A model generated the notes under the pieces. It was not told the DNA's origin, made no database searches, and saw only the letters and a program-made list of their open reading frames with translations. From Marsupella aquatica (Eukaryota; Plantae; Marchantiophyta): a stretch of DNA of 64,000 bases. The position numbers and the translations under genes are program-made. The stretch spans positions 21,303,455-21,367,454 of the forward strand of contig OZ316897.1 of NCBI GenBank assembly GCA_973895155.1, written 5' to 3'. Shown piece after piece: positions 1,637 to 64,000 of this stretch (positions are counted from its first letter, which is position 1; each line of letters starts with the position of its first letter).

Positions 1637-1656
1637 TAGAGTCCCACCCTTGTTTT

Positions 1657-1674
1657 TGGCGCCGCTGCCGGGGA
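1657..1674 (+). promoter_or_regulatory. Primer binding site, tRNA-Asp type
   Basis: TGGCGCCGCTGCCGGGGA, one mismatch from the Athila-type tRNA-Asp PBS TGGCGCCGTTGCCGGGGA. Confidence 0.85.
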
Positions 1675-1780
1675 CAACTCTTTACAGTTTTTGTTGGAGT
1701 GGAGCCACAAGACTTGGAGGTGTGTTTGCAGGTTTGCTGTTCAAGAGAAGAAGGGAGATAAGAAGGTGATTGTGAGTGGC

Positions 1781-7759: not shown

Positions 7760-7799
7760 GTGTGTTTGCGGGGACGCTGCACACTTAAGTAGGGGGCTA
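7757..7799 (+). promoter_or_regulatory. Hairpin and polypurine tract of gypsy-1
   Basis: TAAGTGTG...CACACTTA inverted repeat (7757-7787), then AAGTAGGGGG-CTA directly before TGTGGGA. Confidence 0.75.
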
Positions 7800-18926: not shown

Positions 18927-18931
18927 AACGA

Positions 18932-30918: not shown

Positions 30919-30965
30919 TACCTACGCTTCCGTTCTAACTTCATATCTCACGGCTTAAGAAATGC

Positions 30966-35652: not shown

Positions 35653-37220
35653 TCTAGCTATGAAGAAGCTATGGCCTCTCCAGAGAAGGATAAGTGGTTG
35701 GAGGCGATGTTGAAGGAGATGAATTCTTTGAAGAAGAATTCAACTTGGCGCTTAACTGACATGCCTTGCGGGAAAACACTAGTTCCGTGTAGATGGTTGT
35801 ACAAGAGGAAGTAGGATGGCACTTACAAGGCACGCCTTGTGGCCAAAGGGTACACCCAGAAGGAGGGCTTGGACTACAAGGAGATTTTCTCACCAGTTGT
35901 CAAACTCGCTACTATCCGTGTCTTACTTGCGATTGTGGTATTCTATGATCTTGAGTTAGATCAGATGGATGTAATTACTGCTTTCCTGCATGGATTGCTT
36001 GATGTGGAGATTTATATGACTCAGCCTCCAGGTTTTATTGATGAGAAGACCAGACACTTGGTGTGTAAGCTCTTGCACTCGTTATACGGATTGAAGCAGA
36101 GTCCCAGACAGTGGAATAAGCGTTTTGATTCCTTCATGTTATCCCAGGGGTTCACACGAAGTGAACATGATTGTTATATTTACATGAAGGAGGTGGAGAA
36201 TTACTCACGTTTTGGTTACATTGTGCTGGCATTGTACGTGGATGACATGCTGATCCTGGCTGAGAATAAGTTTGATGTTGCCCATCTGAAAGCAATGCTG
36301 AGTAAGGAGTTTTCAATGAAGGACTTGGGTCAGGCCAAGAAGATACTAGGGATGGAGATTCATCGTGACAGGGAGCAAAGGCAATTATGGTTGTCTCAGA
36401 GGCATTATTGGAGAAGGTACTTGCCAAGTATGGAATGGAGAATGCAAAACCAGTTGGTACTCCATTGGCCTCCCACTTTAAACTCTCAAAGAATGATTGC
36501 CCTTCTAGTGAGAGTGATAGACTGGCGATGAAACATGTTCCCTATGATAGTGTTGTGGGTAGTTTGATGTATGCAATGACATGCACTAGACCTGACATTG
36601 CCCACGCTGTTAGCATTTTGAGCAGATTTATGGCAAATCCTGGTAAGCTTCACTGGGAAGCAGTGAAGTGGGTTTTGCGGTATCTGAAAGGTACCTTAGA
36701 TTGTGGGATCTTATTTGACGGTAAAGCAGACTCTATATTAGAGTTGGAAGGTTTTGTAGATTCAGATTATGCTGGTAACTTGGATAACAGGAAGTCTACT
36801 ATAGGCTATGTGGTTATGCTGGGTGGAGGTTGTATCAACTGGAAGTCGACAACTCAATCTTGTGTTGCGTTGTCTACTACTGAGGCTGAGTACATTGCTG
36901 CATGTGAGGCAACCAAGGAGCTGATTTGGCTACGGAGATTGGTGAGTGATCTGGGTCTTTTACCTGAAAGACTGGTGCTACTGTGCGACAGTCAAAGTGC
37001 TTTGCATCTAGCTAAGAACCCTGTGTTCCATGCCAGGACAAAGCACATTGACATTCGTTATCACTTCATCCGTGAGGTGATTGAGACGAAACAAATGTTT
37101 CTGGAGAAGGTGGCTTCAGAGGAGAATGCAGCAGACATGCTTACCAAAGTTTTACCTACTAGTAGCTTTAGTCATTGTGTGGATATTATTAATGTTAGGG
37201 CCAAACCGGAGACTATGTAG
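35653..37220 (+). pseudogene. copia-B RT-RNase H segment
   Basis: KARLVAKGYTQ, QMDVITAFLHG, LYGLKQSPRQW, LYVDDML, FVDSDYAG, RTKHIDIRYHFIRE, with stops and a frameshift near 36405. Confidence 0.93.
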
Positions 37221-43280: not shown

Positions 43281-44204
43281 TCAACACTTCCGAAGAAACC
43301 TAGCATTCCACAATGTATTCATTCCTAACACATTCCGTAAACAGAGTTGTTTCTCTTCTTTGTTGGGCATTGGCAATGTTGCATCACCACAATACACTGC
43401 CTTAACTGATACTCGCACCCAAGGACTCTCAATCATGACACAATGAAATTTATCCTCTCCTGGTAACCCTGTCACTTCACCTCTAGCAACAACTGTAGAG
43501 CGATCCACAACGCTTCGTACTTCTACAGCATCTCCTTTTGAAAACTGCCACACAAAATTGTTAGGACAAAATACTGTCTTGTAGTACTGATTTGAGCATA
43601 TCATCAATTTAAGAACATAAGCCAACTGAAAACAAATTCACCTTTGCTGCTGGATTTGGGGAGAGAATTGGTCCTCGTTCACTAGGTGAGATAGTGATAG
43701 GGGTTGATTTCTTGAATCTCTTTGAAGGCCTAGGTGGTGTAGCCTCTAGTTCCTAAATTGCATTTGACACTATCTATTCATCTGTGACAGCAATCTCATC
43801 ACTCTCACCATTACCAATGCTGCTTTGTACAACGCAAGGTTCCTGCAGTGCTCCCAAATTTGCTTCTCCCATACTTGGCTTTGGCTTCTACCTTGTTAAA
43901 GTATCTGATTTCTCTCGTTGTGATACAGGATTCTCCCCTGAAGAAGCTACCACAAAACCAAACAATGAATGCTTAGAAAACTTCATTCTAAATTGAAAAA
44001 TAAACTATTGCATATGTAATATATTTAGAGTATAAGTTTGTATGTTCTTACCATCACCATCACCTGAGAAAGTAAGAGAACGTTTCCTGCTACTACCTTT
44101 AGGCTCAACCACCACCTTAGTAGCAATTGCATTTGATAATTGCATATGAAACTGATTCTGTTGATTTTGTGCAATGAAAGAGGTCATCATAGATGTCAAA
44201 TTGT
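43281..44204 (-). pseudogene. 3' exons of CACTA TnpA-like gene
   Basis: Last exon VVARGEV...FHCVMI...VRVSV...LPMP...LG...LW resembles the Tnp1/En/Spm C-terminal domain. NLTSMMTSFIAQ continues KLEFKVDNL from 57788 across the MULE. Confidence 0.7.
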
Positions 44205-44320
44205 GAGGAATTGTACGGTGCGAGGAAACAGGAGATTTTGCTAGCGAGGCAACATTGTTAGCGAAGCATTCTGGCGGATACATTTATCTCACATTCCATG
44301 AAAATAATGCCCAAACAGTA

Positions 44321-46757
44321 TGTGACGCCAATGACATGGTCCTTATTTTGTAACCTGATTAAGTAGGTTGCTGTATGCAAGGAGTAGCTATTGATATTGC
44401 ATAACAATTAGCAAGATGGCAAGAATAAGGGCAATCATGGCGTTAAGAGTAGGGAAATAAAAGCTATGTCGCGGGTGGTCGACGACCATATCTCTTTCAA
44501 TATGTCACCAAATCCGGATCTGTAAAGAGCATTGGAAAGATCTGGTCAAGGCGAGTAAAATCGATATAAAACACTCGAGAAACGGAGGTGTATTAAGAAA
44601 GATACGGCCTGATTAGTGTGACGGGTTAACTTGTGGCCGAAATTAGCGAATTCGGCTTCAGTTTCGGGTTAACCCAAGCTCGACCACGGCTTAGCTTATG
44701 TGAGCACGGCTTCAGCTTAGCTCAGGTCAGCACGGCTTCAGCTTAGCTTAGGTAAACACGGTTTCAGCTTAGCTTAGGTAAGCACGGCTCCAGCTTAGCT
44801 CAGGTCAGCACGGCTTCAGCTTAGCTCAGGTCAGCGCGGCCTCAGGTTAGCATAGGTAAGCTCGGGTTCGGGCTAAGCTTAGGCTAGGTTAGCGGACAGC
44901 GGATAGCGGATAGCGGGTAGCGGCCTAACCCGAGACCACGGGTTAGCTCTACTCGGGTTAGATAGGATAGCTAGGTTAGCCGAACTCGGGTTAGCTATGT
45001 AACTCGGGTTAGCGCAGCAGTGAGTACCCCCTCTCGGTTGCGGGGGCATAACTCTCTGTGTATTTGACCAAATCGGCTATAATTGACCTCGTTGGAAAGA
45101 GGAGCTCAAGCCGCTTCCAACGTTGCTATCCACGCAGAAAATGGTTGAATAGAGAAATCGGGAGAGGAGGCGCAAGCTCGCAAAAACCATGGAGGAGGGC
45201 CAAATCCGAAGTACATAGCCAATTCGAGATAGAAATAAAGTTGCGAGTTAGGGTTCAGTAGTTAGAGATAGTGGCGGCTCTGTTAGGGCTGGGATGGGGC
45301 TCCAGCAGCGTAGTATCCACCCATTTGGGCTCAATATGAGAGTATATAGAGCAGCCCCCCGGTAGAGGCAAGGGGGGGGACTTCAGTTGTGTGATCTCAC
45401 TTAGACTGAGCAGCAGGGAGGAGCTCTGTGCAAGCAAGGCTGGACTTGGACGCTGCGTGTTGGGGAGAGCTTGGTTGTGCTATTACTCAAGGAGTAATCA
45501 GCCAAGCTTCACAGCAACGGGTTGCTAGGTTTGCGAGCTGGATTGTGGCTCTTTCTAGTGGGCAGCACAACTGGGTTCTTTTCCCCCGATATAGAGCCTT
45601 GGTGATAGGTGATGTATTGGTGATTGTAAACTGTGGGGAGGATTTCAATTCGATTTGCGGTGGGCACATTAGGGAGGCTGAGATACTGATTAAGGGGCAG
45701 CAGGAGGAGCATTTACAGTTCAGTCTGGCAAGGCTACGTGATCCATGGGGAGTCCCGACCTTTGTCTGGTGGAGAGCACTAAGGGATCTATGGCCAGAGC
45801 TAAGCTTGCAGGGCAAGCGTGAGGCCGGGCCTCATTGCAGTCTGGGGTAGATCGCCGTTAGGCCTGGTACCAGCTTTGAAGTCAAGTCAACTATGCATGC
45901 GTAACTTGACGTTCTGAATTGGAGGTGCGAGATCTGTATGTGCCCCCAAGAATGAAATGCAGTGAAGGAGGTTGAGTTCAGGATTGAGTTTGCAAGGCAA
46001 GTACGGGATTGGTTTGAGTCCAATCTGTCGTCGCAATCTGGAGTGAGCCGGGCTCAGGTTCAGGATTGAGCTTGCATGGCAAGCATGGGGCTTGCGGGGC
46101 AAGCACGTCACAATCTAGAGTAGACAGCCTTCGGGCCTATTGTTCGGATCAAGTGTTCTCAGTGAACTATTGTGCACATCTTTGAATCTAATTGAGTTTT
46201 CCTCTCAGGCCTCATTTCTCTCATGGATGTGTGTGTGTGTGAGGCAATCTGAGTGTATGATGGGACTAGCAGCGCCATTGAGAGGTGTATAGGGTGCATT
46301 GAAGCGGGCTGGGTGAGGACTGTCATAGCTCTGATTGCTGAGAGTGGAATGGCAGAGTGGTGGGGCAATGGCTTAGAAGTCCCTAAGCCAGGAATCAGTC
46401 AGGAGTCACTGGTTTATGGGTATATTCCGGCGGCGGAATAGAAATATACCTATGACAGTAAGCATACGTATAGACCTATGTGCACCGTAGCGCTAGGCCC
46501 TGTGTGTACGGGCCCGATATGAAGACCCCTTATCACCAGAAATATCATGAGCACGGATCTGATTCCCAACCTTGGTTCTTAGGGATTGAGCTTGGGTGAT
46601 GTGTGACGGAGTCTTGTTATGATAGTCTGGTGTTAAGGGCATAAATTGGTGTTTACCGGCCTTCACAGCATCCCTTTGTGATCCTCAGGTACAAGGAGAT
46701 GGTTTTGGCACCCATAGTGACGTCTTTGGTGTTAAGACCCATGTCAATCGCGTGACA
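44321..46757. mobile_element. Probable solo LTR (2437 bp) nested in the MULE
   Basis: Same termini as 14909-18926 (TGTGACG...CGTGACA), flanks CAGTA/CAGTC, and shared motifs CGGTAGAGGCA(A)GGGGGGG and GGAGTCCCGACC. Confidence 0.7.
44703..44858. repeat. 26-bp tandem repeat x6 (AGCACGGCTTCAGCTTAGCTCAGGTC)
   Basis: Seen directly, with decayed copies on both sides. Confidence 0.9.
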
Positions 46758-47453
46758 CAGTCTCAGTTTTCCACCTCTTACAATAATGAAAAGAATATGA
46801 CAATGGAAAATCCTGCATGATTTTCATAAGTATTCCATACTTGAGCCACACACGATTTAATCATCTAAAAAGGATCACCAAAACTAGAAACTCCCATCAA
46901 ATTATGGAACCTCTTTACATTGAAAGTGTGGATCGCCAACAACTTCAAGACAGAAAAACGGTAAGAGTCAACCTCGACCAGTACATCCAGTCCTACTTCC
47001 TCTTACTTGATCAGTCATAAACTTCATCCTCTGATTCATCGGAGATGTCACTACTACTAGGATCGCTACTGGTCTCCCTCTCCGTGGACTCGGCAGACTC
47101 ATCTAAATACTGACGGACTGTCCCCGCCTCATTGTCGATAAACCTTGAACAATCCAGATATCTTCGAGCACCTCTCATGGACCGAAGTCCTTTCGATTCC
47201 CAAGTCAAGATAACAGGATCTTCATCAACCTGCCTCGCCGATGTCTCAGCATAGCACGGAAGAGTAAAAGGCTTCTCAGGAGTAACCACAATGGACTCCT
47301 GGACTTCCCTCCGAAGACGAAATCTCTCCTCAGAAAACTAATCCACCCTCCTATCACTGACGCAACCACCGACATCAGTTGACGAAGAGCAACAAAATAA
47401 AGAAAACAAAAGAAACCAAATAGGGAGTCCGACATCAGAAGAGGCCAAGTACT

Positions 47454-50400
47454 TTACTCCAGGTCGAATTCGTCTTTCTCGCTTGAAGGCCCAGCCTGTT
47501 CATCCCTTGGAATCGTGAACTCATCATCCGACCCAGCGTCTTGATTAACCTTGGCTGGCTGATCCCTAATCTGCTTTGCCTTGCTCAAATGCCTCGCCAA
47601 AACACTGTTTAAAGTTTTTTCTGCACAGCAATGGAGAATGTCCCTGTCTTCAACACCGACAACAAATCTCCCGGAGAATTCTCCGGCAGAAAACGAGCTA
47701 CCGTCACACACAGTCCAGTCAAGGACTATGTCTTTGGGTTTTGTGAGGAATTCCATCACGGCTTGCATGAACCCAATTGAAAGCCTTTTCGATCCAGCAA
47801 CAGCCGCTTCTGGACAAGGGTCAGTCTTAGGGTAACAAACACTCAACATTGACTTATGTCTTGCATCTTTCGAAGACGTCAATGGAACATACGCTGGGTC
47901 TTTAGGAATCTTTGCACTAAATTCCACCCAACAAAAAACATCCAGGATGAGAGTGCACACCTGCATAAAAACCAAAATACATCAGAAACAATGCTAACTT
48001 TGTTAGCGAGCTCGCTAGCATTAACTTAGTCGGAAAATAGAAAATTAACACCTAAACAAGATATGTTTGGTAGCTGAAAATTATAATTTTGTTAGCGACA
48101 TCGCTAGCATTAAAACTCTCAAGAAATTTAAGGGATAACTACCTCAATATCCATATCTGCCCTCCATAAAGGGGTGGACAACAAAACGGTATATTGCTGC
48201 ACATGTTTGAATTTGTTTTTTTGCTCGACTGCCGTAAATATTTGCCTCATGTGATTGAAGTCTGTGCTGTGCAAGACAACAACATATCCGTCGTCTGAAA
48301 GCATTGGTCTCATCACTCCAAAAAATTAATATGAGAGTTTCTCGCTCCAAACATTCCAAGACGGAACCTGTTTGTCTGTAACGCTTGTTCTATGCCCAGT
48401 TGGAAGAGAAATGAATCCCAAATGTGCTCCAATCCCAGCATAAGGCTTTCCATTAATTACGACATGGTTCGGGCACTCTACGCTCTTCGACATCCCAGTA
48501 ATCCATCGATCTCCATCTCCCATCCAAGATGGCCTCACTTTACTTATGCTAATTGAGTTTGCAGTATCGGTCAAATTGCTACGAGCCAGGAAATGTCGTT
48601 GCCCATCCATCTTCAAACCACACATCCAAGCAACACCTTGAGCAACTGAAACTTCCTCATCGTCCGCATCTAAAAGAATCTGGATGTTCCGCTTCCATTT
48701 CAAACGTTTTATACTTCCTAAATCCAATGCGCTCTTTGTTGTGACTTCGGCATCTGGGGACTGAGGTTCCTCACCATCATCTGCTCCACTCTTCAAACTC
48801 TCAGAAGCCGCTCCCTTCCTCCTCTCTGTGAAGCAAAAGACATTAGTGTCTGTATATTCGACACACATCCAGACTTAAAAATAAAAAGTAACATACAATT
48901 AATAGACTTACTTGGCTTTCCGGAAATCTGGGACCCATCTTTGGATTTGTCCTTCAATGCTCCTTTTCTTGGCTTCCGTGCTCGACTCCTATCCACTATG
49001 GCAGCTACACCAAGACAAGCTTTTTCCATCGCCTCGCAACCACCAACTTCAGCATCAGTGGGTGCCAATTTGGACTCGGAGATGTAAGATTCCGGAAGGA
49101 ATCCTCGATTGATCATGTGAAGAGCTGCTTTCTCTGTAGTGTCAAATGTCACAGACCATTTGTTCGAGTCCAAATACCATGGACAATGAAGAACCTCCCA
49201 CTCGCTCAATCTCCTTGGAGCTTCACTTCCCTCGCAAGGAAATATACAATATTCCCCAAACTTATCACTTGTAGGGTCCTCTTTAACCCGGGCTTTAACC
49301 CCGGCTATCCATGGGGAGAAACAGGCTGGGTAGGACCACCAATAAAATTTGTCTGCTACTTCTCTGTCTACAAAAAATCGATACGTGTATCTCTTCGCTC
49401 TCCTCCGAAATAATGTAATGTCTACCTTCTCTCCTGTCTTGGGTGGCCAAATCTGCTTGAAAAAATGAGTTTTCACACGAGTTTGGAAATCCTCAAAATC
49501 CTCCTCAATGTCAAGGATTAGCGAAGCTTTTGTCTTCTCTGAAGACGTAAGGATCCTCGACTCAGGGACAGTAGGCATTACCTCAAAAACAATTTCAGAC
49601 ATGAGGGAAGACGAAATTGACTCGACTTGCTCCCACACTGCCCAACGATGAAGCCAAAGCTTAGTCTCACCATCTGAGAATTGACCTGGATGAAAGAATT
49701 TTTTCCGAAGCTCAGGACGACACTGTGCCTCCAGGAGTGTACATCAGAGCTCTGGGGATAAAGAGGTCACACCAGTGAACAATCGAGCTTGATCAAGACC
49801 ACAAGAAACATTTCCCCTGCCTTTGTCATCTGTTCTCTGGGCCTCCTTTCTCTTGTTCTCGCAGTAGTTATGCATTTCGACACATTTCTTGAAAAAGTCT
49901 CCAAACTCAGGATTTAGTAATGGACCGATCTTTGGAACTTTCACATTCCAATCAGCAAGTTGTTCTTTCATCATGTCATGCATTGCTAAGTCCTGTGCAG
50001 CCTTGGAAAGGGGCTCGCCTTGAGCCTCCTTAAGAGCAAATTTCTTCTTAAGGTCCTCGGTCTACGATGCAATGTTAGCAGCGGATAGAATATAAGTGCA
50101 GGCATCCAACGTCATGTTCTTCGAATACCATGCGGCCTTCCGCAAATTGGCCATCTTCTACTGGAAAAGTTTGTAATTCTCAGCGTCGATGATATCTTTG
50201 TAAATGGATAAGTCATTGTTCAGAATCTTCTGGACGCGTTCAGCCTCCAAAACCCAGGAATTCTCTACATGACATTGAGTTAACCTGCCACAACATGCCT
50301 CATGTTAGCGAGATCGCTAGCTGAAAGTGACCTGGTAAAAATGAAATTTCAGAACTATCTTATCATGAGAAGTCCCACCTGTTCAATGCGTGCATAGCCG

Positions 50401-51154
50401 ACTCGATCTGAACGAAAGAGTTCTTTTCACCCTTAAAGATCTTGCAGACCACTCGAGGATGGTACTTAATATCATCCGGATGTTCCTCCGCCAGTTGGCT
50501 CCACGAATACAATCGGTGGTTTCCATCGAAAACATAGAACATTTTGTCCTTGAGGATCTGGAAAGAAACATGAGAATCACATTCGCGCTCAAACTCCTTG
50601 TTTTGCAACACCCAAATATCATCCCAAGTTTCGCGGATGGCATGTGTACAGATCTGGATTTCTCCATCCTTGTTTGTCATCTGAACGTAAAATCGAGGCG
50701 CATCCTCGATGTAACCCTGCATTTTGAACTCGGACTTCAATGTGTCTATCGCAGTGGAATCCTTCTGCAGAGACCGGACAATCTGCATGTTTCTCATCCG
50801 GCATAGAGGAATTCGGGTGGGAGCCAATGCAAATCCAAACTCATTCACTCCAAACGAGTGAAGATGACGGTTTATGACAACCGTGTAAGGTTCCAAAGCG
50901 CTAGGATCAAACACAAGAGCAACTACGTCTACCGCTGTCACCATCTTGGGCCGCCTTGGAGTCTTCAATCCCGCTGCAAGCGCTTTCTTGTTCGCTGTGG
51001 ACCTAGTTTCTCTCCTTGTCGACTCCCTAGACTGAAACGATCCTCTCAAAGAAATACTCTCTGGAGACAACGATGACTCCATGAAATAAAACCCTTCGGA
51101 GAAGAGTGCTTGAGCCCGAAGACTGCAGCGGCTGCACGCGTCAAAAACGTCCAT
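47454..51154 (-). pseudogene. Spliced gene: ParB/Srx-like N-terminal domain plus C-terminal N4C/N6A DNA methyltransferase-like domain (~1100 aa)
   Basis: Inferred exons 51154-50379, 50284-48912, 48825-48143 and 47960-47454 with GT-AG borders. ParB-like IPLCRM...VRSL...IDTLKSEFKMQGY...FYVFDGNHRLYSW. MTase-like AHLGFISLPTG...RPMLSDDGYVVV...FLTKPKDIVLDWTVCDGSSFSAGEFSGRFVVGVE. Three stops in exon 2 and a frameshift near 48325. Confidence 0.7.
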
Positions 51155-51760
51155 AGAGCACCTCCTTTCGGAGAATTAGGACAGCCGTACAAACTGCTAT
51201 GAACTCCCTCCGAAGCCTTACAGAGTTACGATAGTGAATACTGACAACGATCGACAGTACGATGTAAGGAATAACAGAAATCTCCTGGCAGGGACCACTA
51301 GTTGTACTTTTTGGAAAACATGAAGAACAACCTTCACGACCGATAATCTTATCCAGACAAAATACTCCAGGTGTCCCGTGTAATTTGTACCGTTGACATT
51401 ATGGTACCCGTTGACTATTCCCAACGGAATCCTAACGGTAAACTTCCTCAAAAATCAGTTTGACTTTTTGGCTAGTGAGATCGCTGGCATAAACTCAATG
51501 ACACAGGTATCCTTAAAAGAGTTGAAATCAACGGTTTTCTTGCCATAAAACTATCAAAACCAAGCTAGCGAGATCGCTAGCATGGGAGACGTCCCTATAC
51601 GTTGAGTAAAAGACAAAATAACGGTAAAATCAACGGGAACGAACTGACAATCTGTTCGGATTGTTGTTTCCGTTGGGAAAAACCCAGTTTTGGTCCTACA
51701 AATAGAATTCGTATGGGAGATTCAAAACATAGTGGTTGTATTTTTGTATGCTGAGAAGAG

Positions 51761-54700
51761 ATGATGTCGATGAATTCCAAGGTGGTTTTGGAGCGTAGAA
51801 TGATGGGAGACGTGGTGGTACTCCCAAGTGCCCCTAACTCGTCGGAGGTTAGGGTGACAGAGTCATTCCTTGCAACTCGTTTTGGAATTCCAAAAGATGA
51901 CCTTGTCATGAAGTTGTTTGAGTTGTATTCTCAAAATGGGCCACGGAGTCACGAGTTGAGAGAGGACAGTAGTACTTCCGGGAAGGTCTGGACGCTGAAG
52001 GTTGGATCTTGTGTCGAGGTTCTGTCCAGTAAAGATGGTTTTCCTGATGTCATTTTGGAACCCATGGAATTAGATCCCGTTCATCAAACTCCTATGATTG
52101 ATCTTGGGACGCCTCCCAAAGACAGAGCTCCCGAGGTCATTGAAATATCTCCAGAGAGTATAAGGCAAGACACATCTTGTGGTTCGATGAAGTCACGAGA
52201 TGGTTCCGAACCCGAAGGGTTAGCGACAAATTTGATTGAAAGGACTGGGGATAGCATGACCACAGTGTATCAGATGAGTGCCTATGACGCTTTTCTCAAT
52301 ATCAGTGGAGCGAGTGAACTTGCACAATTTAGAAGAGGGAATCAATGGAATGAATGTCAGGTTTCGACTCTGCCATCGACATACAATGGTAACGTTGTTT
52401 TTGAACTTCCTCCAGTCGAGTGGGGCGGGAGGGGAGGAGGTCTCCAAGATATGGATCGAGAGAAGGACAGCTATCCTTGGACGAGACTAGTGACTACATC
52501 TGCGAATTTGAAGCCAAGGTTTCATTGGGCTGTGTCGAAAGTTTGTTGCGCTGGAATTCTTGAATGCCATAATTTGGGTTGCCGGAAGTTGAAACATACT
52601 GGAGTGAAAAATGACTGCGCTTTCAGAGGGAAAGGGTTGTTGACTGACATCTTTCGTCTTGGAGAGCAAGTGAGTGAGGGAGGACTTGTCTGTGGCTTCT
52701 GTGAAGAGAGGCCTCTCTGTATTTGAGAATGCCCGGCAAAACTGTTGTATGTGTACCCTAAGCAAGGTTTGGAGAGTCACATTTCAATGCATATGTCCAG
52801 ATTGGCTGTGCATATGGGATTCCATGATCACCCTGTTTGGAAGGGAAAATCTCGTTCTACGAGAAAAACAGCGGAAGATGTGGTTTTAGGGGTCCATCGG
52901 TTGAATCCAGTCTCAACTCCCGCACGTCTGAGAAACCAGTCAATTGGGAACCTTGTCTCACTATTGCATCCAGAATCATCGGCTCAGTTGTCGAGAGAAG
53001 AACAACAAGAAATCGGAGTAGTTTCTACCGCTCCAAAGTTCCAACCTATTCTTCGGAGTGTGAAGATGGATAATCCTAAAAAAGGAGAACTTGACTCACT
53101 TCATGAAATGCAATCACGTAACAATTTCCCTTTCGTGCAAAGGTACCTGTTTCCCGGTCAAGGAAACAGAAATGATCGAGCGCATGTATTCAAAATGAGT
53201 ACAAATGGTCCTGGATCGGGTGTGGAAATTTTGAGGAGCATGGAGGCTGGAGGAGCATTGGAAGGTTCGTGGGTCAGTTTTGACGTGATGCATCGTATCA
53301 CTAGTGGATGGTTGACCTTCAGCGCACACGTGTATGACCATAATTACCGCGCTTTGTGTACAATTTTCACTTGCGAGTTGAGAGCCGAAGACATAGAGTT
53401 GCTTGAAACTGCGTGGAGGTTAATGGTAGATGTCGCATCCAAGAATGGAGTGCATAATCCCATTATTGGAGGATTCATAGCAGACAATGCGGAGGCTGGC
53501 TGGATTTCTGTGAGAAGGGTATTTTTTGGAGGTGTCAGAAATCCTCTGAAAGAGCATAGTGATGCTTTCCATCTCTCAATCCCTCAGAAGACACACTTTG
53601 GAGGGGATCAAGGAGGGGTGTCATGCGGAGCACTATAAGATGTGGGAGAAGTTAAGAATTGCTCCAACATACGTCGAAGCATATCGTATCGCCGAAGACA
53701 TTCAAAAATGGTGGAAAGAGGGGAATTGTCACCCTTCCAAGCTTAAATCACTACAAGGGTGGATTTCATGGTGGGTTGTGTGGTGGAGACAATGGGGTAA
53801 CTTTATTCGTGTGGTGAGTAACGGTGAATTCTTTCTGATGAGTTTAAGCTAACGAGATCGCTAGCAATAAAACTTCTTTTCATAAATGTATTTTGGTCAC
53901 CGACTGAAACATTAGACTGTCTCAAAATAGACATATCACTAGTGAATACAAGTGTTAACTCTGCTCATTTTTCAGACGCAAACTGCGAAGGAGTCTGCTC
54001 TGATGCCAAACTGTGCGGGAGCTAAATCTGCTCACGCATCAATGCGTTCCTACCAGCTGAAGAAGAAAATTGGTTTGATTGAAGCCTATGAAGTTGACCA
54101 GAATCGAGCAGCTGGACAGATTGCAGCGTTCACTGCATACTTGGAAGGGTGTCACCGTGGGAATGGTCCTACAATATTTGAGCTGGCCTTCAGAAATGCA
54201 GATACAATGGGGTCTATGGATGCCTATGAGAAGGCATCCAATCTACTATTTGAATCATCTGGAAAATATGAGTTCTATAGAACTGTGCCTTTACATGGAG
54301 ATCTTAGAACAACGTCAGGGAAACGGAAGGGTAGTGCTTCTGCTTCTATTCATGAAAACGATTCTCATAGACATGATAAGATATTGCGCACAGTGGCGTC
54401 GCGGTCTAGTTTGAAAAGAAGAAATCTTTACACAAAATTTGGTAACTTCAGCGGTGCTTCTGATATTGGTGGACCTTCAGACTTTCCTGGCGATGAAGAC
54501 AACCCCACTTGCCATGGACCTTCTCTTCCTCGTGAAGTTATAAATATATCAGATGATGGTGAAGAACTTAGCCGTGGAGATACAACACAGGACCCGAACT
54601 ATGTTGGAGAAATACCACAGCCTCAAAATAATCGGGATTCACCCCGAAGGATCCCTTTTGTTGAAGAGGTTGATGTGACATATGGGACCTGGCACTTGAG

Positions 54701-55538
54701 GCGGAGTGGAAAAGGGAGTGGACCTGTTTGCAATGGACGAGTGGACCGAAGTGTGTTTGGAAGAGATGAGTGCAGGAATCTCATCAAAGAAACTGGAATG
54801 AAGGCATTCCGGGCTGGAGTAGTTGGTGTTGCGATTCACGGATTGAGGTTGTCATCTCCACATTGTCAGCTTCTATACTTCTGTCCGAATAATAGGTGCC
54901 ATAAAACAGGTGGCAAAAGGACTCTTGCCCAGCTTCCGGAACCACCTGAGGCATTGCAAGTCCAACATGGGACCAGGCTGACCCCAACAGAGATTGACTT
55001 TCTTCTTCGAAATGGGATTGAAATCAGAGGATTATCATACTCTGATCCAGCACCGATTGGGTCGTTCTCCTCTCCAAATCGTGTTGACCTCCGAATTGAT
55101 GTGAACTCCTTCCCAGAAAGAGTTGACATTGGTATTCCAAACCGTAGATTCAAGACCCGGAATGGGAAAGGCGTTCGTCAACGTTTCCAGAACACCCCGG
55201 AGCTTCTCAAACGCATTCGATCTACGACTAACGAACATATGAGAGTCATTGGAAGTGAGAAGATATGCCTCGGAAACAGGTGGGGATGGCAATATCTTAT
55301 CGTCACTCACGAGACAGATTCTAAAATTGCACACAAGTAGTGGGTCCAAGTGTGTTGCTTTCCTTCTTGCTCATGTGATGACTTCTACAAGAGACACACG
55401 AGAGGAAGACCCTATATGTCTTGTAAACACCTCCTCTGGGTGTACTTAAACAAGTTCTCACTGAATCTAGACAGAGACGATCTTGTGAAGCAGCCAGTTC
55501 TGACTGTTGCTGAAGTAAGGAGTTTGATTCCGTTGTAG
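51761..55538 (+). pseudogene. Mutator-like transposase with GCM-like zinc domain and C-terminal SWIM finger
   Basis: CAGILECHNLGC...CGFC...ECPA...GFHDHPV (GCM/WRKY-like), WVSFDVMHR...GFIADNAEAG...AFH (MULE catalytic core), CSCDDF...CKHLLWVY (SWIM). Intron 53814-53975. Stop at 52724 and frameshifts near 53575 and 55340. Confidence 0.8.
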
Positions 55539-56448
55539 TGTAGTTGACTTAATCTCTATTATCCGTTGAGGTGAACGTTTCAGCGTCCCTAATTTTGTCG
55601 CCTTTTTGGTTTTCAGAACAGAGGAAAGTCCTCCACCTCACTAATTATATTGTGTATGCAATGTTAGCGAGGGTCTAGTACTATTCTATACGTATCGGCA
55701 ATAGTGTTTATTTTTCTAGCGATGTCTCTGGCATTAAACCCGTAAAGTAAGTTTTAGGTTTCCCGTAAACGGTTTCTTTTTGACCAAGTTCTACATAACG
55801 TAGAGTTCAATAACTCATGTATTTTAATTGTTTTTGGGATATACATTCGAGAAAACAAACCATTTTAGTCACGCATAGTTTTACTAGCGATGTCGCTAGC
55901 AAAACTAGTACTGTAAGTCCAAACATTGCAGTCGGCAGTCTTCTCAAGAAGTTATTTCAAAATGAACAAAGATGTTCTCCCTTACAACTGTGTTGGACAT
56001 TGAGTGTCGAAGAACTTTTTCAGATCCCAGATCTACAAAATAGACACAGTCTACAAAATGTTTATGCCCCTACAACATGGACTACCGTTACTGTTTCCTA
56101 TTCAAGGGCTCGCTGCCTTGTACGCATCGGAGTCAGAGTCGGATACTGTATCATAGTCGGAGGAAGCGAGGATGTTTTCCGTGCTCGCATGTTATCCACA
56201 ACGGAAATCACTCAAGTACCAATAGGCAATATTTACTAGCGATCTCGCTAGCAAGGTATGCACTCATGAAATTGAAAAAACTTCCGAAGCTTTATTCGAA
56301 TATTGTCCAATATTTATCAAAACATCTGTAACTGACAAAATGTCCGTGTCCTACCGATCATTTCATTTTAAGGTCACGGACTTGGCAGAGATTAATTGTA
56401 AAACTACAGGGGTTCGCAACGCGGAGTGATTGTTGTCTAGGGTACTAT

Positions 56449-56877
56449 TCATGGAGATGCTGCCTTGTAGGCATCTGAATCTGTGTCCGAATCTGTATCA
56501 TAATCGAACGAAGCGAGGATGTCGGATGTCCAGTAGTTGTGTATGTCAATGTCCCTCCAGTAAGACTCCTCCTCCTCTCTCTTCCGCTTCTCTGAAACTC
56601 CCTTAGAAATGGATACGTTTGTGCGAGAAGACATTGGTGCTCTGGAAACAACGCTTGAAGTTGTTTCCTTCGGCGGTGCAGGTCGCTGAGTTGAAGCAGA
56701 GGCAACAGGCGGGACCCGACTGGATGATGATCCAGCCTTGAGCGGAGGGGTAACACTCTTCCTTGCCGGAGGAGAGCTTGGTGGTGAGTCCACTGGGCCG
56801 TCAGTTTCGGCGTTGTAGCGGCGGACCTCCAGAACCCATTTGGGTTTTGGAGCGGAAGGGTCATCATTTTTTGCCAT
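56449..56877 (-). CDS. Hypothetical 142-aa Pro/Ser-rich protein inside the MULE
   Basis: ATG-initiated ORF, GC-richer than its flanks, with basic EKRKRE and an acidic tail. No recognisable domain. Confidence 0.35.
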   Translation of the reverse strand: MAKNDDPSAPKPKWVLEVRRYNAETDGPVDSPPSSPPARKSVTPPLKAGSSSSRVPPVASASTQRPAPPKETTSSVVSRAPMSSRTNVSISKGVSEKRKREEEESYWRDIDIHNYWTSDILASFDYDTDSDTDSDAYKAASP

Positions 56878-57787
56878 TTATGTCTGTAACAAACGCTTCT
56901 GTGTATCAGATTACTTTCTCAACATGTGTTTACCAAATAGAAACAGTCACATTCAAAACATCCAAGCTCATCAAGTCAAAACGCGCAAAACTACGAGAAG
57001 GAAAAAGAGAACTGGGAAAACCAGACTTTCTCATGAACAATAATACTATTTGTTGTGAAGAGGTCTTCCCGTATCAAACTTACATCTCTTTGTGCGACAA
57101 AAACTTTGCAAGAATGCGACACACCCGAGAACACCAGATCCCCTCCTCGCCCGCGGATATGACAACACAAGCTCAATTGAAGTTACTCTGCGATGCGAAG
57201 ACGATCACGAAAGAGTGAGGAGACGATGAAAGTCAAATAATGAGAACACTGTTAGGAATGGAGATGAGTCGAGAGGTCCGAATGACATATAGTGCATTTT
57301 CGGAGCCTCAGATCCTCTCAAACAGTTTCGCGTTTCACGCTTCACTCATGAGGAAGGGGACATTGGATTCCGTCGTGATATGATACGGCTTAGTGCTGTT
57401 GCTGCAACGGTTTACACCCATGATTACTAATGAGTGATTTTCGTGTGTCATGACCGCACGGAGTATTTCGTGCGAGAATGATGGGCAGAGTTATGGCTAG
57501 CAACTTCGCTGGCCTGATGTACTGTAGAATTATATGTTTAATTATGGTGCCGTCGACGACCGTTCGTGTCCAGGGAATACATAATATGTACCAATGCATC
57601 GTCGGGGTCGCTTTTTAAACCCAACGGGAGTTAAAATAAATAGGTGGAATAGAAGGTTCCTTTTAGGCTAGCGAGTGTCACTTTTTGCTAGCAAGGTTGT
57701 TTTCGTGCCAAATTTTGGGTATTCCAAGGAGAAAATGATCCCGTGTGAGGAAATTTTTTACTGTTTCCTCGCACGCTACAATGACCC

Positions 57788-59880
57788 TCAAATTGTCCAC
57801 TTTGAACTCAAGCTTGGTTAAATTCTCCACAGACTGTTCAAGCTTGAGTAATCGAGCTGGTTCCTCAATTGTAGTTTCCCTGGACAATGGAGTCTACATA
57901 CACAAACACACCATACAATGTCAATCATCAATGATAATTTGAACATCATGGATAACTGATAATCAAAATTGAATATATACATAGGTTTTCATTACATACC
58001 GCTGATCCATGTGCAGATCCAATTCCAACAAAACTACTGCCTCGATGTTCACCACTGCCCATAGATGGACTGATCTGCACTGGGGGGACTGGACTACTAG
58101 ACACAAGTTTTGATATAACAGGGCTCATCATTCCTTTTGCTTTCTGGAAACACATAATCACATTCAAAGCAATTAGAATATTAATGAGAACTCATCATGT
58201 CATTGTTTATTCCTATACTAGATAAACACTTCAATTCAAATGACAATCTAGACCTGTGGTGAGATGGACCATCTGAAGATTCTTACCAATTTTTTTTCTG
58301 CTCCAGCAGCCCCTCCTCTTCCAAAATGCTCTTTGTTCACCACTTCTGCCCTCCTTGCTTTCATCACAACACTCCTTGCAAGCAAAGTAGGACTATCAAA
58401 ATGATCCACCGGTCGTGCCCATTTCAATGGGTCAACATATTGAGGTCCTGGTTTGGAGCGATCATGTTTACATACATCCTTCCAATAAATATTTAGTTTG
58501 TGACGTTCTCTTTTCAATAACGTCCGACAGTGACTAATAAATTTCTTGTCAGACACTGACTGCTTATCTAGATACTCCCAATCTGCCTCCATCAATTTTT
58601 GCACATCCTCAATTATGTTTGGATCTTGTTTGTTCCAATCAGGTTCTGATACATCAAAAAGCCTCAAGACATTGGCACGTAGCTCCTCCAATCCAATATG
58701 GTTTATTAGGATGAGAATCATCAATATCATTGTCATGAATCTGAAAAAAACACCACAAATGATAGTCATCAACATTGGGAATGAAACAAACACCCAATTG
58801 TTTCTGAGTACACGAATTATAGGCCACAATGTGAAATGTGCAATGAAAATCTTACCGTTATCAATTTTCCCTTCTTATTGTCAGCCCTTCTTGCACTACC
58901 GGTTCTTTGAAATTGTTTCTTGGCTTGCCTAGATTCCCTACGTTGCTCTGTTGCAGTCTTTCTTTCCTCTACATACACAATGAGCATCCAATATTGATCA
59001 TCCACAATTGCAAAATGAGGGACAAGAAATATTACAATATAATACCTAGGAGGCTTCATTGAAATTGACTTACCTGAACCCTGACTGGATGTCATTACTG
59101 CAGAGTGTCCAGATTTTCCAATCGATGTTGATGGAACCACCACTCTACACATGCAAACCACTGAAGTTTTGAGTCCAACATTCATATAGATCAACATTGA
59201 AAAATACATTGAAAATCTTTGAAATTACTTACATTCAAATAGCTGGCCAGTCACAAGGTCTTTGTAACATTGCACCATGCCACTCATGGAAGGTCCAACC
59301 TTTGTAGGGGTTTCTTTTGCATCTGCCAAGCTCTTAGATGGAGGTTGCAGATGTTCCTGTCCAGATCAAGTTAAAACCAATGTTATTAAACAGAATCACT
59401 ACCAATGTCTATAGTTTCCTCATAATGTTGGTGAAATGTAATAGGAATCTCACGTTGGATGAACTTTCTGGTTTCTCATCTTCACTGTACTCAGCATCAG
59501 TGTCATAATCTGATTCAGAGCCCTCATCACCAGACTCTGCCATACTCACTGAGGCAATTCTTGATAGTCTGGAACTCTGTCTCCTCTGTGTGGTAACCTC
59601 ACTTCTAGGAGTTTGACGTGCACTTGTTTCCTTCTTGCCCCCTACGGTCTGTGTTGCACCCAGTCTACATCAGAGAATATCAATTTATGAATGACAAGTA
59701 CCCAAAACCAACTAATATTGCTGATGAGCAATGTTAACACATCTTTGCACATTCAAAACAACATGCAAGATTATACTCACATGAAATTGAAATTTGATCC
59801 AAATATCTCCCTAAATTTTCTATTGTTGGCTGCTACCTTCTGATTTCGTTCCTCCTCATATGGAGGTATTCGCTGCATTC
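57788..59880 (-). pseudogene. 5' exons of CACTA TnpA-like gene
   Basis: Multi-exon region. W...LKRERHKL...P..VDPLKWARPVDHF...ARRAEV...HFGRGG resembles En/Spm TnpA-type proteins. Exon limits approximate. Confidence 0.6.
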
Positions 59881-59962: not shown

Positions 59963-62030
59963 TCATTTTCTTTTATACTTTCTTTTTTCTTTGTCTGTAG
60001 TACTTGGTCCAGGCTCCTGTCTAGTTGTACAGGCTTCTGCCAACTCTATGTGAAACTTAGCATTGTCATCCATAGTATCATGGAAATCAACTTCCATGTA
60101 ATCACCCAACACCCTTGTAGACCTGGATTCCTTATGGAGGATTGTTCTCCATGCAATCCCCTTATCATTTGGGTAAAAAAACACTTGTTCTATCTGTCGT
60201 GGCAATACATAGTCCATTTTCTTGGAAGCACCTAGCTCCTTCTGAAAATTTACTTGCCACAATCCAGACGCATCATATCTCATACTTGCAGTGGCTTTGG
60301 GAGTCCAAGATGGGTTTGCCCACCTTCCTTTGAAAAGGACCACTTCCTTTATCAGAGGCCCATAGTTCAACACTAAGATGTCTGTCAACACCCCCACATA
60401 TTGTACAGATTCATCTACTGTTGCCCCTGACCTAATGACCCGCTTCTCAGTGAATGTACAAGCCATCCCAGAATCAAAAGTCTTGAACCCAGATGAGTCA
60501 CAATCAATCAAGGAACCTAGTGATGGAATGGTCCTCCAATGGTGCCCATAGGCTCTGTAGGCCCTGTACCGTAGTGCCTTCAAACTAGGTGGTACACTAT
60601 ACGCTGCCAACACCATTCGTTCAAACTCATTCTCAAAATTATGCCTTCTAATTGTCACTTCAAACCATTCTCTAAAAGGAGGCAACTCATCCAAATCAGA
60701 GGGATAAGGCACAGGATTCCTCTGATTTCCTGGATTCTTCATCCATTCTTTCCGGAAATCTGCTCTGTGCTTGGTAACTGCCTCCTTTTGATCATCATTA
60801 ACCCTGCATGGCAATAATGACTCAGCTCCTAGGCCCACACAATTTCTGCTCAAAACTCAATTCTGTTTAAATCAATCTATTCATTAAAAGTGAATTATTA
60901 TTGAATTTATGAACATTTGGGCAATAGAAAGTGTACATTTGGCCTTCAAAAAATGTACAGTTAGGCAAGAAACAAAGTTGATGGCCATCACATGTAACAC
61001 CATGTTCATCCTTTGTAAACGAACTAGGATGAAACTCCTTCTAGTCAAGATCATTTTTGTCACCTCAAGTTTACAATTGATCATTTAGGTGTGGAGTATT
61101 CTACCATAGTGTACCTTTTGGGTTTAAAAAGTGTACAGTTAGAGACCAAATAGTGAACATTTAGAGGCCTAAAAGTGAACAAAATAAAATACACTTTTAA
61201 TGAATAGGGTGATTTAAAAAAAACAACAGAGAACTTAACAATATAAACCATGCTCATACCTATACCATGGTTCCACCAGCTCTTCATTCTCCAGTATGTA
61301 ATGATGCATAGCTATCATATCATTCCACTCCAAGGTGATCTGTTTTCCAGCTCCTTCCAAGACAATGCCTGCAACACCAGGATTCTCCTCCAAGTCCCAT
61401 GTTCTCATTCTGGTCCCCTTAACATCGATCATGTATTTAGAAAGGAATCCTAAAGATTCATCCAGAAGGTAGCCTTCAGCCATAGAAGCCTCTGGAAGTG
61501 CCTTGTTTCGAACATAACCCTTCAAGGTCTTTAGATATCTTTCTATTGGGCAGATCCATCTAATGTTCACTGGACCACAGATGTCTAGTTCTTGAACCAG
61601 ATGAATCAACAGATGGGTCATGACATCAAAGAAGCTTGGTGGGAAATGAATTTCCATAAGGCAAAGTGTGAATGCAACATCTCTCATCACAGAGTCGTAC
61701 TGTGAGGGATCCCAAACCTTGGCACAGATGGTACGCCACACATTGCTCACTCTGGCTATGGCCAACCGAACACCTTCATCAAGTAATCCCATTGTTGCCA
61801 ATGGAAGGATTTGTTGCATGAGGTGATGGAAATCGTGAGATTTCAGCCCTGATAACTTCTTCTTAACTGTGACACATTTAGCCAAAGAACTGCTGAAACC
61901 AGTGGGCCCTTTAAAGGTCAACAATACCTCTAAGAACTTAGTCTTCTCTGTCTTACTGAGGCAGTATGGGGCTGGCGGCATGATCTTTGAATCTTTTTTT
62001 GGATCTGGATTTGAAACCAGCCACAGGTGT
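59963..62030 (-). pseudogene. CACTA TnpD/Tnp2 transposase C-terminal part (DUF4218- and DUF4216-like), cut by LTR insertion
   Basis: GLKSHDFH, FPPSFFDVMTHLLIHL...GPV..RW..PIERYLKTLKGYVRN...EASMAEGY, and YVGVLTDILVLNY...LFKGRW...QIEQVFFY. Confidence 0.9.
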
Positions 62031-64000
62031 TGTGATGCCTAGACAGGAATCACTCGGCCGGTTAAGTGGGTAAAGCAGGAAGGCACCCTAGGAACACCTT
62101 AGTATAGTGACAAAACAAGGAAAATATAAACAATTAGGGGCAACCATGGAACCCGGGCAGAGGCCGGAGGTAAGGCTGAGGGTGAAAACCCGATTAGGGT
62201 TAGGGCGCGTTAAGCGTCGGCGGCTAGGAAGGATCAACGGGAAGAAGGACCGGCAGAGGAGAGGGGTAAGGAGCGCTTGCAGGAGATGGTGGCTCATTTG
62301 CGAGCACGAACTAGGCAGACGACTACGGGAGGCCAACTACTGTCAGCTGCTTAGGCAAGCACTCGGGGAGAGAGTAGATACCGACGATCGACCTAAGGAG
62401 GGTATGAGCAACGTCAATCAAGCGGCACATTTCTGGGGATGCCTGTTCGAACGGGCAACTGAGTACATCAAGACTTACGAGGACGAGGAGTCAGAAAGGG
62501 CAGCTCGAGAACGGCAGGAGCTCGCTCGATTGTGGGAGCTGCACAAGACGGCTTTCTTAGGAGGCGAACTCATCAAGGACGAGTTCCTGTGGACGCCTAC
62601 TTCCAATCAACTCGACGATCTTCTGTTTTGCAAAGACAGCGTCGTCGGCATCCGAGAGGCCATCAAGAACTGCAACGACATACACTGGGAATTAAAGGGT
62701 AGCACGGAAAGGTGGACCCAGGCAACAGTGCTAGGAGAAACCTCCACGGCAGCAGAGATGAAGAGGAAGGGAGCCGTCAACGATGAAGCCACCCCGGCAA
62801 AAAGAACGAGGTCGGCGGCACCAAAGAAGCCAACCGAGCAGCAGAGCAGGAGGCAGGGAGAAGCCAAAGAGGAGGAGGTCGATCCCATCAAGGCCATTCC
62901 AACCAGGGATGACACCTGGAAGGGCTGGGCGGCAACCCTACCGGTGGAGGTGCAACTACATTTTGCACGGGAGGAGGATGCATGCTTTACGGCCATGCAG
63001 ACCAAGAAGTACCAAGGCTTCATGGCCGGATCCGGCTTGGAGGCCTTTGTAAGATTACCATGGCTGAAGCCGGAGGTACCGGAGTCAGACCTATTAGAAT
63101 TCGTGGGGTCATGGGAACCCGAGACCAATTGCACGAGGATATATGGGAAGGATTTCTATCTTACTCCCAAGGTAACCAGACCCAAGCCGGGACTACAACG
63201 GGTACCTCCTCAACCAATTGAAGAAGATCTTAAAGGAGGAGCAGCAGGTAATCGGCATGGGGAGCGTGTCGCGGCTTGGCTATCACATGCCGCTGTTGTG
63301 CCGGTATGCCAGAGGACAGACTTTTGCCCCGGTACTTCCCCTGCAGGTAAGGGCACCCGAGGAAGCTCCAACGCCGAGGCCGTTGGCTGAGAAGCCTCAA
63401 CCACCTGTTAGTCCTACGATCGAGCAGGTGTTTAGGCCCAGGAAGGAAGACTTGCCGATGCAGCAACCAGGCATGCAGAGTCTGCTGAAACTACTGGAGA
63501 AAGAAAAGAAATCGGCATCGGCAACAACAACAACAACGGCAATGGCAACAATGCAGGACACTACTACAGAGGTAGGCCTACACCGGCTCACAAGAGAAAA
63601 CCCCTTTGCTGGAGACAAGGAGAGAATCAGGCCGGAATCCAAGCCAGGTGTTCGAATGTACGTGGGAACCTCAAGCTCCGAATCTGAGGCAGAATTGCCT
63701 GAAGCTCCTACCGACGAAGAGGAGAGGGAGAAGCCGGACGTCCAAGAGGTAGAGGAGGCAGTGGAGGACTGCAGCCATGATAATTCCGGCTATGGGTCGG
63801 ACCATCACGTTCCAGGAGTAAGGACCTGTGGCCGGTTTGTCCCCACACTTCCAAGGGTAGTGCGAGGGGACCCCAACCAGCAGAGTAGCCCTGAGTCTCC
63901 CCCACCAGATGTTGCTCCCCCGAGCTTTGACGGCATAAAACAGACGGTGCAGGAATTTCAGGAGCGAATCAAGCAGGAGGAAGAGGCCGCCCTGGCTAAG
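62031..64000 (+). mobile_element. Third copy of the gypsy-2 LTR (partial), inserted in CACTA TnpD
   Basis: Starts TGTGATGCCTAGACAGG and matches the reverse complement of 35647 onward. A 233-bp deletion near 63175 frameshifts the LTR ORF. Confidence 0.93.

Follow-up and report, generated by a model that had tools for sequence, protein, structure and literature searches.

A 64,000-nt stretch of the genome of Marsupella aquatica (Marchantiophyta; contig OZ316897.1 of assembly GCA_973895155.1, forward-strand positions 21,303,455 to 21,367,454; below, "the window") contains a Mutator-like element (MULE) with a palindrome of 16–20 nt, CTAGCGA-NN-TCGCTAG, dispersed through its non-coding DNA in seven near-perfect and two degenerate copies, the latter at 51470 and 55714. 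No full site is found in the other 50,417 bp of the window. Plausibly, this is a self-addressing motif system of the element. In our estimate the chances are about even that the palindromes are family-specific sites for a dimeric, probably element-encoded protein, by analogy with the targets of the VANC proteins of Arabidopsis VANDAL elements. Alternatives at the level of host regulation, nucleic-acid structure, or neutral duplication will be discussed with the evidence that bears on each.

Sequence and Distribution of the Palindromes

An initial annotation of the window, made from its sequence, had described a repeated palindrome, and searches bear this out. The 20-mer proposed there, TGYTAGCGANNTCGCTAGCA, is found with up to two mismatches at seven places (48001, 48090, 50303, 51563, 53847, 55882, and 56234; 14 matches when both strands are counted), and has no match at this level in 100 dinucleotide-preserving shuffles. 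Its 16-nt core, CTAGCGANNTCGCTAG, has 12 matches with up to three mismatches, against 1.42 expected; ten of these are within 48003–57512, and the two outside the element, at 26731 and 29540, have three mismatches each. With a weight matrix derived from the seven strong sites, those sites score 28.2–31.5 bits (circular for these seven), 51470 scores 18.9, and 55714 scores 17.0. Nothing outside the element scores above 10.1 bits, and in 30 shuffles the maxima average 11.3 and reach 17.5. As the annotation also had it, the arms are constant among the strong sites and the two central nucleotides are not (GC, CA, GA, GA, GA, TG, and TC).

Several copies had been reported downstream. Two of these, at 55882 and 56234, are strong, and that at 55714 is degenerate, but the sequence at 57495–57514 was rejected as a site: at 9.6 bits it is below the shuffle maxima and indistinguishable from chance. 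The three weak sequences (51470, 55714, and 57495) all have CTGGC in place of CTAGC in the right arm, each is followed, 93–172 nt downstream, by a strong site or half-site, and two of the three have CpG-to-TpG or CpG-to-CpA changes. Parallel decay could explain this, as could the existence of a second and asymmetric type of site.

Seven-nucleotide half-sites number 24 in the window, 21 of them within the element. Those reported beside both of its terminal inverted repeats (TIRs) are real, two at the left end and two at the right (Table 1). The description of the motif as absent from coding exons and from the rest of the window holds for full sites but not for half-sites, which occur in reading frames at 49518 (accessory gene) and 52220 (transposase gene), and outside the element at 16004, 16787, and 16856. 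A full-text literature search for the 14-nt core string found no paper, and one for palindromic intron motifs of Mutator-like elements in bryophytes found nothing relevant.

Table 1. Palindromic sites and other features of the Mutator-like element, in window coordinates.
Feature	Position	Strand	Remarks
Palindrome TGTTAGCGAGCTCGCTAGCA	48001–48020		Predicted accessory intron, ~41 nt upstream of predicted 3' splice site 47961
Palindrome TGTTAGCGACATCGCTAGCA	48090–48109		Same predicted accessory intron as 48001, 89 nt apart
Palindrome TGTTAGCGAGATCGCTAGCT	50303–50322		Predicted accessory intron 1, ~56 nt after 5' splice site (~50378)
Degenerate site GGCTAGTGAGATCGCTGGCA	51470–51489		Divergent promoter; two core mismatches, 18.9 bits
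Palindrome AGCTAGCGAGATCGCTAGCA	51563–51582		Divergent promoter, ~180 nt upstream of transposase ATG
Palindrome AGCTAACGAGATCGCTAGCA	53847–53866		Arm mutated in window copy; 33 nt past transposase 5' splice site
Degenerate site TTCTAGCGATGTCTCTGGCA	55714–55733		3' spacer; 17.0 bits
Palindrome TACTAGCGATGTCGCTAGCA	55882–55901		Spacer after transposase stop; palindromy extends to ~32 nt
Palindrome TACTAGCGATCTCGCTAGCA	56234–56253		3' spacer
Half-sites, two direct	44239–44265	+	TGCTAGCGA (44239–44247) and TGTTAGCGA (44257–44265); 35 and 53 nt from left end
Half-sites	57666–57694	+	GGCTAGCGA (57666–57674) and TGCTAGCAA (57686–57694); 100–120 nt from right end
Whole Mutator-like element	44205–57787		13,583 bp; limits from empty-site contigs
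Left target-site duplication, 9 bp, TCAAATTGT	44196–44204		Identical to 57788–57796
Right target-site duplication, 9 bp, TCAAATTGT	57788–57796		Perfect copy of left
Left TIR, 27 nt	44205–44231	+	22 of 27 nt match reverse complement of 57761–57787; no palindrome copy
Right TIR, 27 nt	57761–57787	-	Pairs with left TIR, 22 of 27
Nested insertion, ~2.44 kb	44315–46757		TIR element foreign to the family; from depth, skipping joints, TIR-like ends
Accessory gene, several ORF blocks	47011–51175	-	From open reading frames (ORFs); exon 1 ~50378–51040 or further
Transposase exon 1	51761–53813	+	Matches to relatives (tblastn) continuous over 51770–53834; defective copy
Transposase intron, predicted	53814–53975	+	GTGAGT...TTCAG, phase 0; from splice consensus, frames, homologues
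Transposase exon 2	53976–55340	+	ORF; colinear with positions 1398–1790 of the related locus L001

The distribution of the sites is not haphazard with respect to genes: all nine are outside coding blocks supported by homology or by ORFs, in predicted introns, the divergent promoter, or 3' spacer. Non-coding DNA makes up some 35% of the element when its nested insertion is excluded, and the probability of seven out of seven sites falling there by chance is about 7e-4, a rough ORF-based estimate. Introns were predicted from splice consensus, reading frames, and homologues. The initial annotation had put three sites in introns of a "cargo" gene (here, the accessory gene); those at 48001, 48090, and 50303 are indeed in predicted introns, whose numbering is likewise a prediction. 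The surroundings of the first two contain no ORF of at least 70 aa and have a textbook 3' splice site, tttttatgcag/G, at 47961 (-). At the third, the predicted proteins of homologues all terminate at the end of accessory exon 1, just before the intron. The predicted transposase intron joins the ORFs 53550–53852 and 53946–55340 in phase, and the predicted proteins of homologues either stop at the exon 1 boundary or read through it. The in-frame translation of the palindrome, AS..AS, is absent from the intron read-through parts of 206 proteins searched for it.

The divergent promoter (580 bp) holds both sites that had been assigned to it, a strong one at 51563 and the degenerate one at 51470. 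Eight copies of the MYB-core-like motif YAACGG are found within 286 bp of it (51390–51675), on both strands and flanking both palindromes; two of these are in CCGTTGAC, which can also be read as a W-box-like TTGAC. The window as a whole has 58 YAACGG motifs, against 32.8 expected.

This company of motifs resembles an ordinary host-type promoter, and the palindrome might then be the site of a host factor, whether transcription factor, insulator, or silencing reader; it would be widespread in the host genome, and the promoter and introns of the element would have acquired or kept it. That no protein of the element has a sequence-specific domain recognised by Pfam is consistent with this. We nevertheless consider it unlikely: 50 kb of neighbouring DNA, in which there are promoters of other transposons, has no full site, and the different central sequence at the same position in a related locus (described below) is a better fit to co-evolution with a lineage-specific binder.

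Conservation among Copies and in a Related Locus

The family is multi-copy: contigs from public runs that align on 43801–58200 with at least 80% likeness number 4,933 in run X1 and 9,991 in run X3. Conservation of the palindromes was measured over 47966–48135 in four public runs, counting a position as variable where another letter made up at least 10% of depth. Of the 69 spacer positions between the 48001 and 48090 palindromes, 19 vary, whereas the palindromes themselves, 40 positions in all, have no variable one (Fisher p = 1e-4). The 21 "other letter" rows of the interval are without exception in the spacer, as are six of six rows with insertions or deletions. Local alignment clips the diverged outer flanks, and the 69-nt spacer is the only fair comparison. 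Summed depth over the two palindromes is two to four times that of their flanks (in X3 it goes from 1,529 to 3,938–4,229, then to ~950), and loose contig ends set in at 47996 and 48114; identical 30-nt blocks are thus still present in copies with flanks too diverged for the 80% limit.

A second indication comes from the mutated arm in the transposase intron. At 53852, where the window has A, other copies have a G that restores a perfect arm (918 of 1056 depth in X1, 1357 of 1357 in X3, and 4.5 of 4.5 in X6). This is the sole palindrome difference among the best 40 of 2,650 rows of the 43801–58200 alignment.

One related locus, designated L001 (2,078 bp), was found among metagenomes, and no further ones among viral or genome contigs. 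Its transposase is 61% identical over residues 22–292. The homologous intron contains CTAGCGC-YG-GCGCTAG three times, at 1110, 1194, and 1284 (none in 200 shuffles), the first of them 32 nt after the 5' splice site, vs. 33 nt in the window; the two introns are otherwise unalignable. Outer GCTAGCG and flanking GCTAGCAATA are common to the sites of both, and an inner position is changed on both arms in L001, from A to C on one and from T to G on the other. Such a symmetric change would be expected if the site and its binder co-evolve. The L001-type palindrome is not found in the window beyond the window's own sites, which match it with two mismatches. The middle L001 palindrome is also the core of a perfect fold-back of ~60 nt with a 28-bp stem (1172–1231; -35.3 kcal/mol, z -15), far longer than any in the window.

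Repeats of this kind could conceivably be neutral by-products, either relics of tiny fold-back insertions or the outcome of local tandem or inverted duplication, that have spread with the family. Two pairs of sites ~90 nt apart (48001/48090 and 51470/51563; the L001 spacings are 84 and 90 nt) have partly similar flanks, suggesting tandem duplication, and L001 has three copies where the transposase intron of the window has one. Independent mini-insertions with target-site duplications (TSDs) of their own had been named in the initial annotation as one finding that would refute its reading. A flanking direct repeat of at least 3 nt is found at one of the nine sites (48001, TAACT), so the palindrome units appear to be without TSDs of their own. 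The sites are also single units rather than arrays; at the pair compared among copies, variation is confined to the spacer and spares the palindromes; the decayed arm at 53852 is private to the window copy; and position is kept across lineages though the rest of the intron cannot be aligned. A neutral origin is in our view very doubtful.

The palindromes might instead work as nucleic-acid structures. As RNA hairpins in the transcripts of both genes, they could control splicing, export, or the making of small RNAs; as DNA cruciforms, they could serve transposition or recombination. A palindrome forms the same hairpin on either strand, which would suit two divergently transcribed genes, and the sites are in predicted introns and probable untranslated regions. 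The nearly constant distance from the transposase 5' splice site, the L001 fold-back, and the extended palindromy at 55882 all fit as well. Hairpins predicted for the window sites are weak, however (-3.7 to -9.7 kcal/mol, z -0.8 to -4.7), which favours sequence recognition over structure, and for five of the seven an equal is found in 4 or more of 200 shuffles. The seven sites share one arm sequence, without covariation; in the sense RNA of the three sites in accessory introns, their T variant would produce a C-A mismatch; and an Rfam search of 44000–58000 gave no match at E ≤1. A structural role is thus quite unlikely.

Fixed arms around a free centre, weak hairpins, non-coding placement, conservation among copies, and symmetric change between lineages together look like a symmetric site for a protein dimer. 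The dimeric protein site proposed in the initial annotation is a good fit to the invariant sites, the restored arm, and the L001 variant. The further proposal made there, that a CG in each arm could make binding sensitive to methylation, is conjecture.

The Element and Its Transposase

The initial annotation had used a span of 48001–57514; TIRs, TSD, and empty-site joints extend the true element to 44205–57787. In each of runs X1, X5, and X6, one contig passes straight from 44195 to 57788; it leaves out 13,592 nt, has 9 nt common to both sides, and represents an empty site. The 27-nt TIRs are short beside those of MuDR, which are ~200 bp.

Near its left end the element is itself interrupted. 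Summed depth over the nested insertion is ~100,000–170,000 in X1, vs. ~2,000–10,000 over the rest of the element, and contigs with joints that skip it are found in X1 (44314 to 46757) and X3 (44315 to 46761). It belongs to a far more abundant TIR element, with a depth 20–50 times that of the MULE, and it contains six 26-bp tandem repeats at 44650–44869.

The window copy encodes a dead transposase: its reading frame is broken by a stop at 52724–52726, a position where one relative (P0019) reads through, and by a frameshift at 53571, where it has 2 nt fewer than other copies. At 54024–54026, within an N..GAES.H block, the window transposase has K where that of L001 has E; we take the E of this block to be the third catalytic residue of MULE transposases.

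As a family, the transposase comprises 200 cluster representatives at E ≤0.001, and its named relatives are from liverworts only (Calypogeia fissa and Riccia sorocarpa, 38–61% identity). It is not recognised by the standard models. Among 12 relatives searched against Pfam, 11 matched no family and one (P0099) matched unrelated SpaA/TED-type domains alone; 19 alignment members had no match at E ≤1, and two full-length relatives (P0181 and P0189) had none either. A search of the Protein Data Bank (PDB) by sequence with the transposase profile gave nothing meaningful.

An AlphaFold2 model of the relative P0012 has a mean confidence (pLDDT) of 76.6, and its sole Foldseek match at E ≤0.001 is the IS256-family transposase ISCth4 (prob 0.99; TM 0.16–0.29). 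With VIA-align, ISCth4 (Z 7.6) is tied with the hAT transposase Hermes (Z 6.9). The N-terminal region of the same model resembles the GCM domain 1odh_A (Foldseek prob 0.96, E 0.018; VIA-align Z 5.6 over model residues 4–259). In the ESM atlas, the clusters nearest to the transposase ORF carry MULE in 61–87% of their members (score 0.94).

The modelled fold is that of a DDE transposase. IS256 is described in PMC5225508 as the prokaryotic relative of MULEs, and TSDs of 8 or 9 bp are given there for Muta1; PMC1702500 describes WRKY-GCM1 fingers as DNA-binding domains of MULE transposases. Mutator elements generally have TSDs of ~8–11 bp. It is mainly the 9-bp TSD that decides for Mutator rather than hAT. 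By TSD and fold, the element is Mutator-like, from a lineage missed by standard models, and the label of MULE that it had been given stands, though the Pfam MULE family is unmatched.

The Accessory Gene

"Cargo" proved to be a misnomer for the second gene of the element. It has homologues of its own, and its summed contig depth is about equal to that of the transposase gene, from which it looks like a gene of the family and not a one-off capture. Eleven homologues map by tblastn to 50378–51040, and they share a conserved RIPLCR...FDGNHR block (the DGNHR motif) in the exon 1 product. No longer forms of the protein were found, which is weak evidence.

Sub-threshold similarities hint at what this protein could be. 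TIGR03187 DGQHR is matched in four of 12 family members, at best with an E of 0.008 and with 14 bits where the cut-off is 58.85, and DUF1015 in three of 12 (best E 0.032); we take both to be DNA-associated families of ParB/Srx type. Neighbours in the ESM atlas are in clusters with DUF3723 (31% of members) and ParB_N (11%). Other searches were less productive: no helix-turn-helix was found in the protein, a PDB search by sequence with its profile gave nothing meaningful, PADLOC returned one stray hit and nothing else, and a literature search linking DUF1015 and ParB yielded nothing relevant. The accessory gene might encode a transposon-borne eukaryotic protein of ParB/Srx type (DGNHR) that dimerises on parS-like palindromes and spreads from them, but we regard this as improbable.

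A small ORF at 56449–56877 (-) could represent a third gene. Its 142 aa start with M, are rich in serine and proline through the body, and end in the acidic stretch DYDTDSD, with no Pfam match; its 3' end is partly duplicated 347 nt downstream, at 79% identity (56098–56175 and 56445–56522).

A Possible Protein-Binding Site, and Known Systems Compared

The closest known parallel is VANC21, a protein of the Arabidopsis MULE VANDAL21. Passages of PMC5735166 describe it as binding YAGTATTAY in introns and in intergenic and terminal non-coding DNA of its own family; that VANC21 strips silencing marks, and that its targets turn over quickly between relatives, is described in parts of the same paper and of PMC10398659. 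VANDAL21 (Hi) and the window element are alike in being multi-gene and Mutator-like, with a short motif that is enriched in their own non-coding DNA and rare elsewhere (within 64 kb, in the present case). In both families, motif number and sequence differ between lineages, and units that bear the motif are duplicated locally.

The differences are also substantial. VANC targets a non-palindromic motif of 9 bp that is packed in same-orientation tandem arrays, whereas that of the window is a dispersed palindrome of 16–20 bp. The hosts differ too, a crucifer in the one case and a bryophyte in the other. VANC carries DUF1985 and DUF287; the accessory protein of the window matches no Pfam family, and neither domain was found in any accessory ORF even at E ≤10. 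Binding and hypomethylation have been demonstrated for VANC21; for the window site both would be predictions. Lacking DUF1985 and DUF287, and with a site that is palindromic and sparse, the window system falls outside the VANC family.

On the reading that we favour, a dimer of an element-encoded protein would bind the palindromes scattered through the non-coding DNA of the element, and all members of the family would thereby be singled out for regulation, anti-silencing for example. The binder, as in VANC systems, might locally remove silencing marks, or it might activate the divergent promoter; by this analogy, anti-silencing would be the most likely consequence of binding. Two candidate binders can be named, the GCM-like N-terminal region of the transposase (as modelled in a relative) and the DGNHR block of the accessory protein. 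The accessory protein is the likelier of the two, and the transposase the less likely, because the TIRs, where a transposase must bind, are without the motif.

Several observations weigh against binding by such a protein. That the motif is missing from the TIRs is one of them, these being where a MULE transposase would be expected to bind. The sites are sparse, nine in ~11 kb with two pairs ~90 nt apart, unlike the dense arrays of VANC targets. Neither candidate binder has a domain recognised by Pfam: the window ORFs do not match Pfam MULE (PF10551) or related families, and the accessory ORFs match no Pfam family. The AlphaFold2 model of the accessory domain is unusable (pLDDT 47.5). Specificity for the element was gauged against 50 kb of neighbouring DNA that is made up of other transposons. 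Conservation was measured at two of the nine sites and on short Logan contigs; gene conversion, or amplification in the recent past, might give the same appearance as selection at the palindromes. The cross-species comparison is with a single locus, L001, which is too short to tell whether it has an accessory gene. Finally, two stop-to-stop ORFs on the (+) strand (55814–56239 and 56044–56331), without family matches, overlap the sites at 55882 and 56234.

Binding sites for transposases themselves offer another comparison. Subterminal repeats of this sort include the 12-bp TnpA motifs of En/Spm (some as inverted dimers), the AAACGG hexamers of Ac, and the MURA site in Mu TIRs. Like these, the window motif is element-specific and present in many copies, with half-sites 35–120 nt from the ends. 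The En/Spm, Ac, and Mu motifs cluster in the terminal 100–300 bp, whereas nine of nine window sites, full or degenerate, are internal and come no closer than 3.7 kb to the left end or 1.5 kb to the right.

In bacterial ParB-parS systems, a 16-bp palindrome is bound by a dimeric protein of ParB/Srx fold. The window palindrome is of similar length. The systems differ in that the accessory protein falls below every curated threshold and that the context here is a eukaryotic transposon.

Other Sequences in the Window

The MULE sits in repeated DNA: depth over its flanks (43801–44195 and 57788–58200) is 3,600–39,000 in X1 and X3 and 31–35 in X5. It is adjoined by a CACTA-type gene with DUF4216 and DUF4218, at 59963–62038 (-). 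The rest of the window (1640–37220) consists of nested long terminal repeat (LTR) retrotransposons, with Ty3/gypsy polyproteins at 1640–7759 (+) and 24752–30921 (-), and copia pieces, interrupted by other insertions, at 13786–14913, 18925–20283, and 35815–36531.

Significance

Exact ends for the element, an unoccupied target, and the knowledge that this copy is defective also make useful annotation. To our knowledge, sequence-addressed self-recognition by a transposon has been established experimentally only for VANC in Arabidopsis VANDALs. The window would add a second and unrelated design: the site is a palindrome, the accessory protein is of another kind, and the Mutator lineage is a divergent one with its nearest named relatives in liverworts. 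If it works as VANC does, the strategy would be both old and recurrent among MULEs. In the improbable case that the accessory protein is of ParB/Srx type, this branch of Mutator, divergent and belonging to early land plants, would have its own sequence-addressed chromatin switch, with site and protein co-evolving between lineages (GA..TC here, GC..GC in L001). More generally, should the palindromes be protein sites, the 20-bp site and its two candidate proteins would be a clean pair with which to study an escape from silencing that spares the host, and possibly a compact tool for targeting chromatin states.

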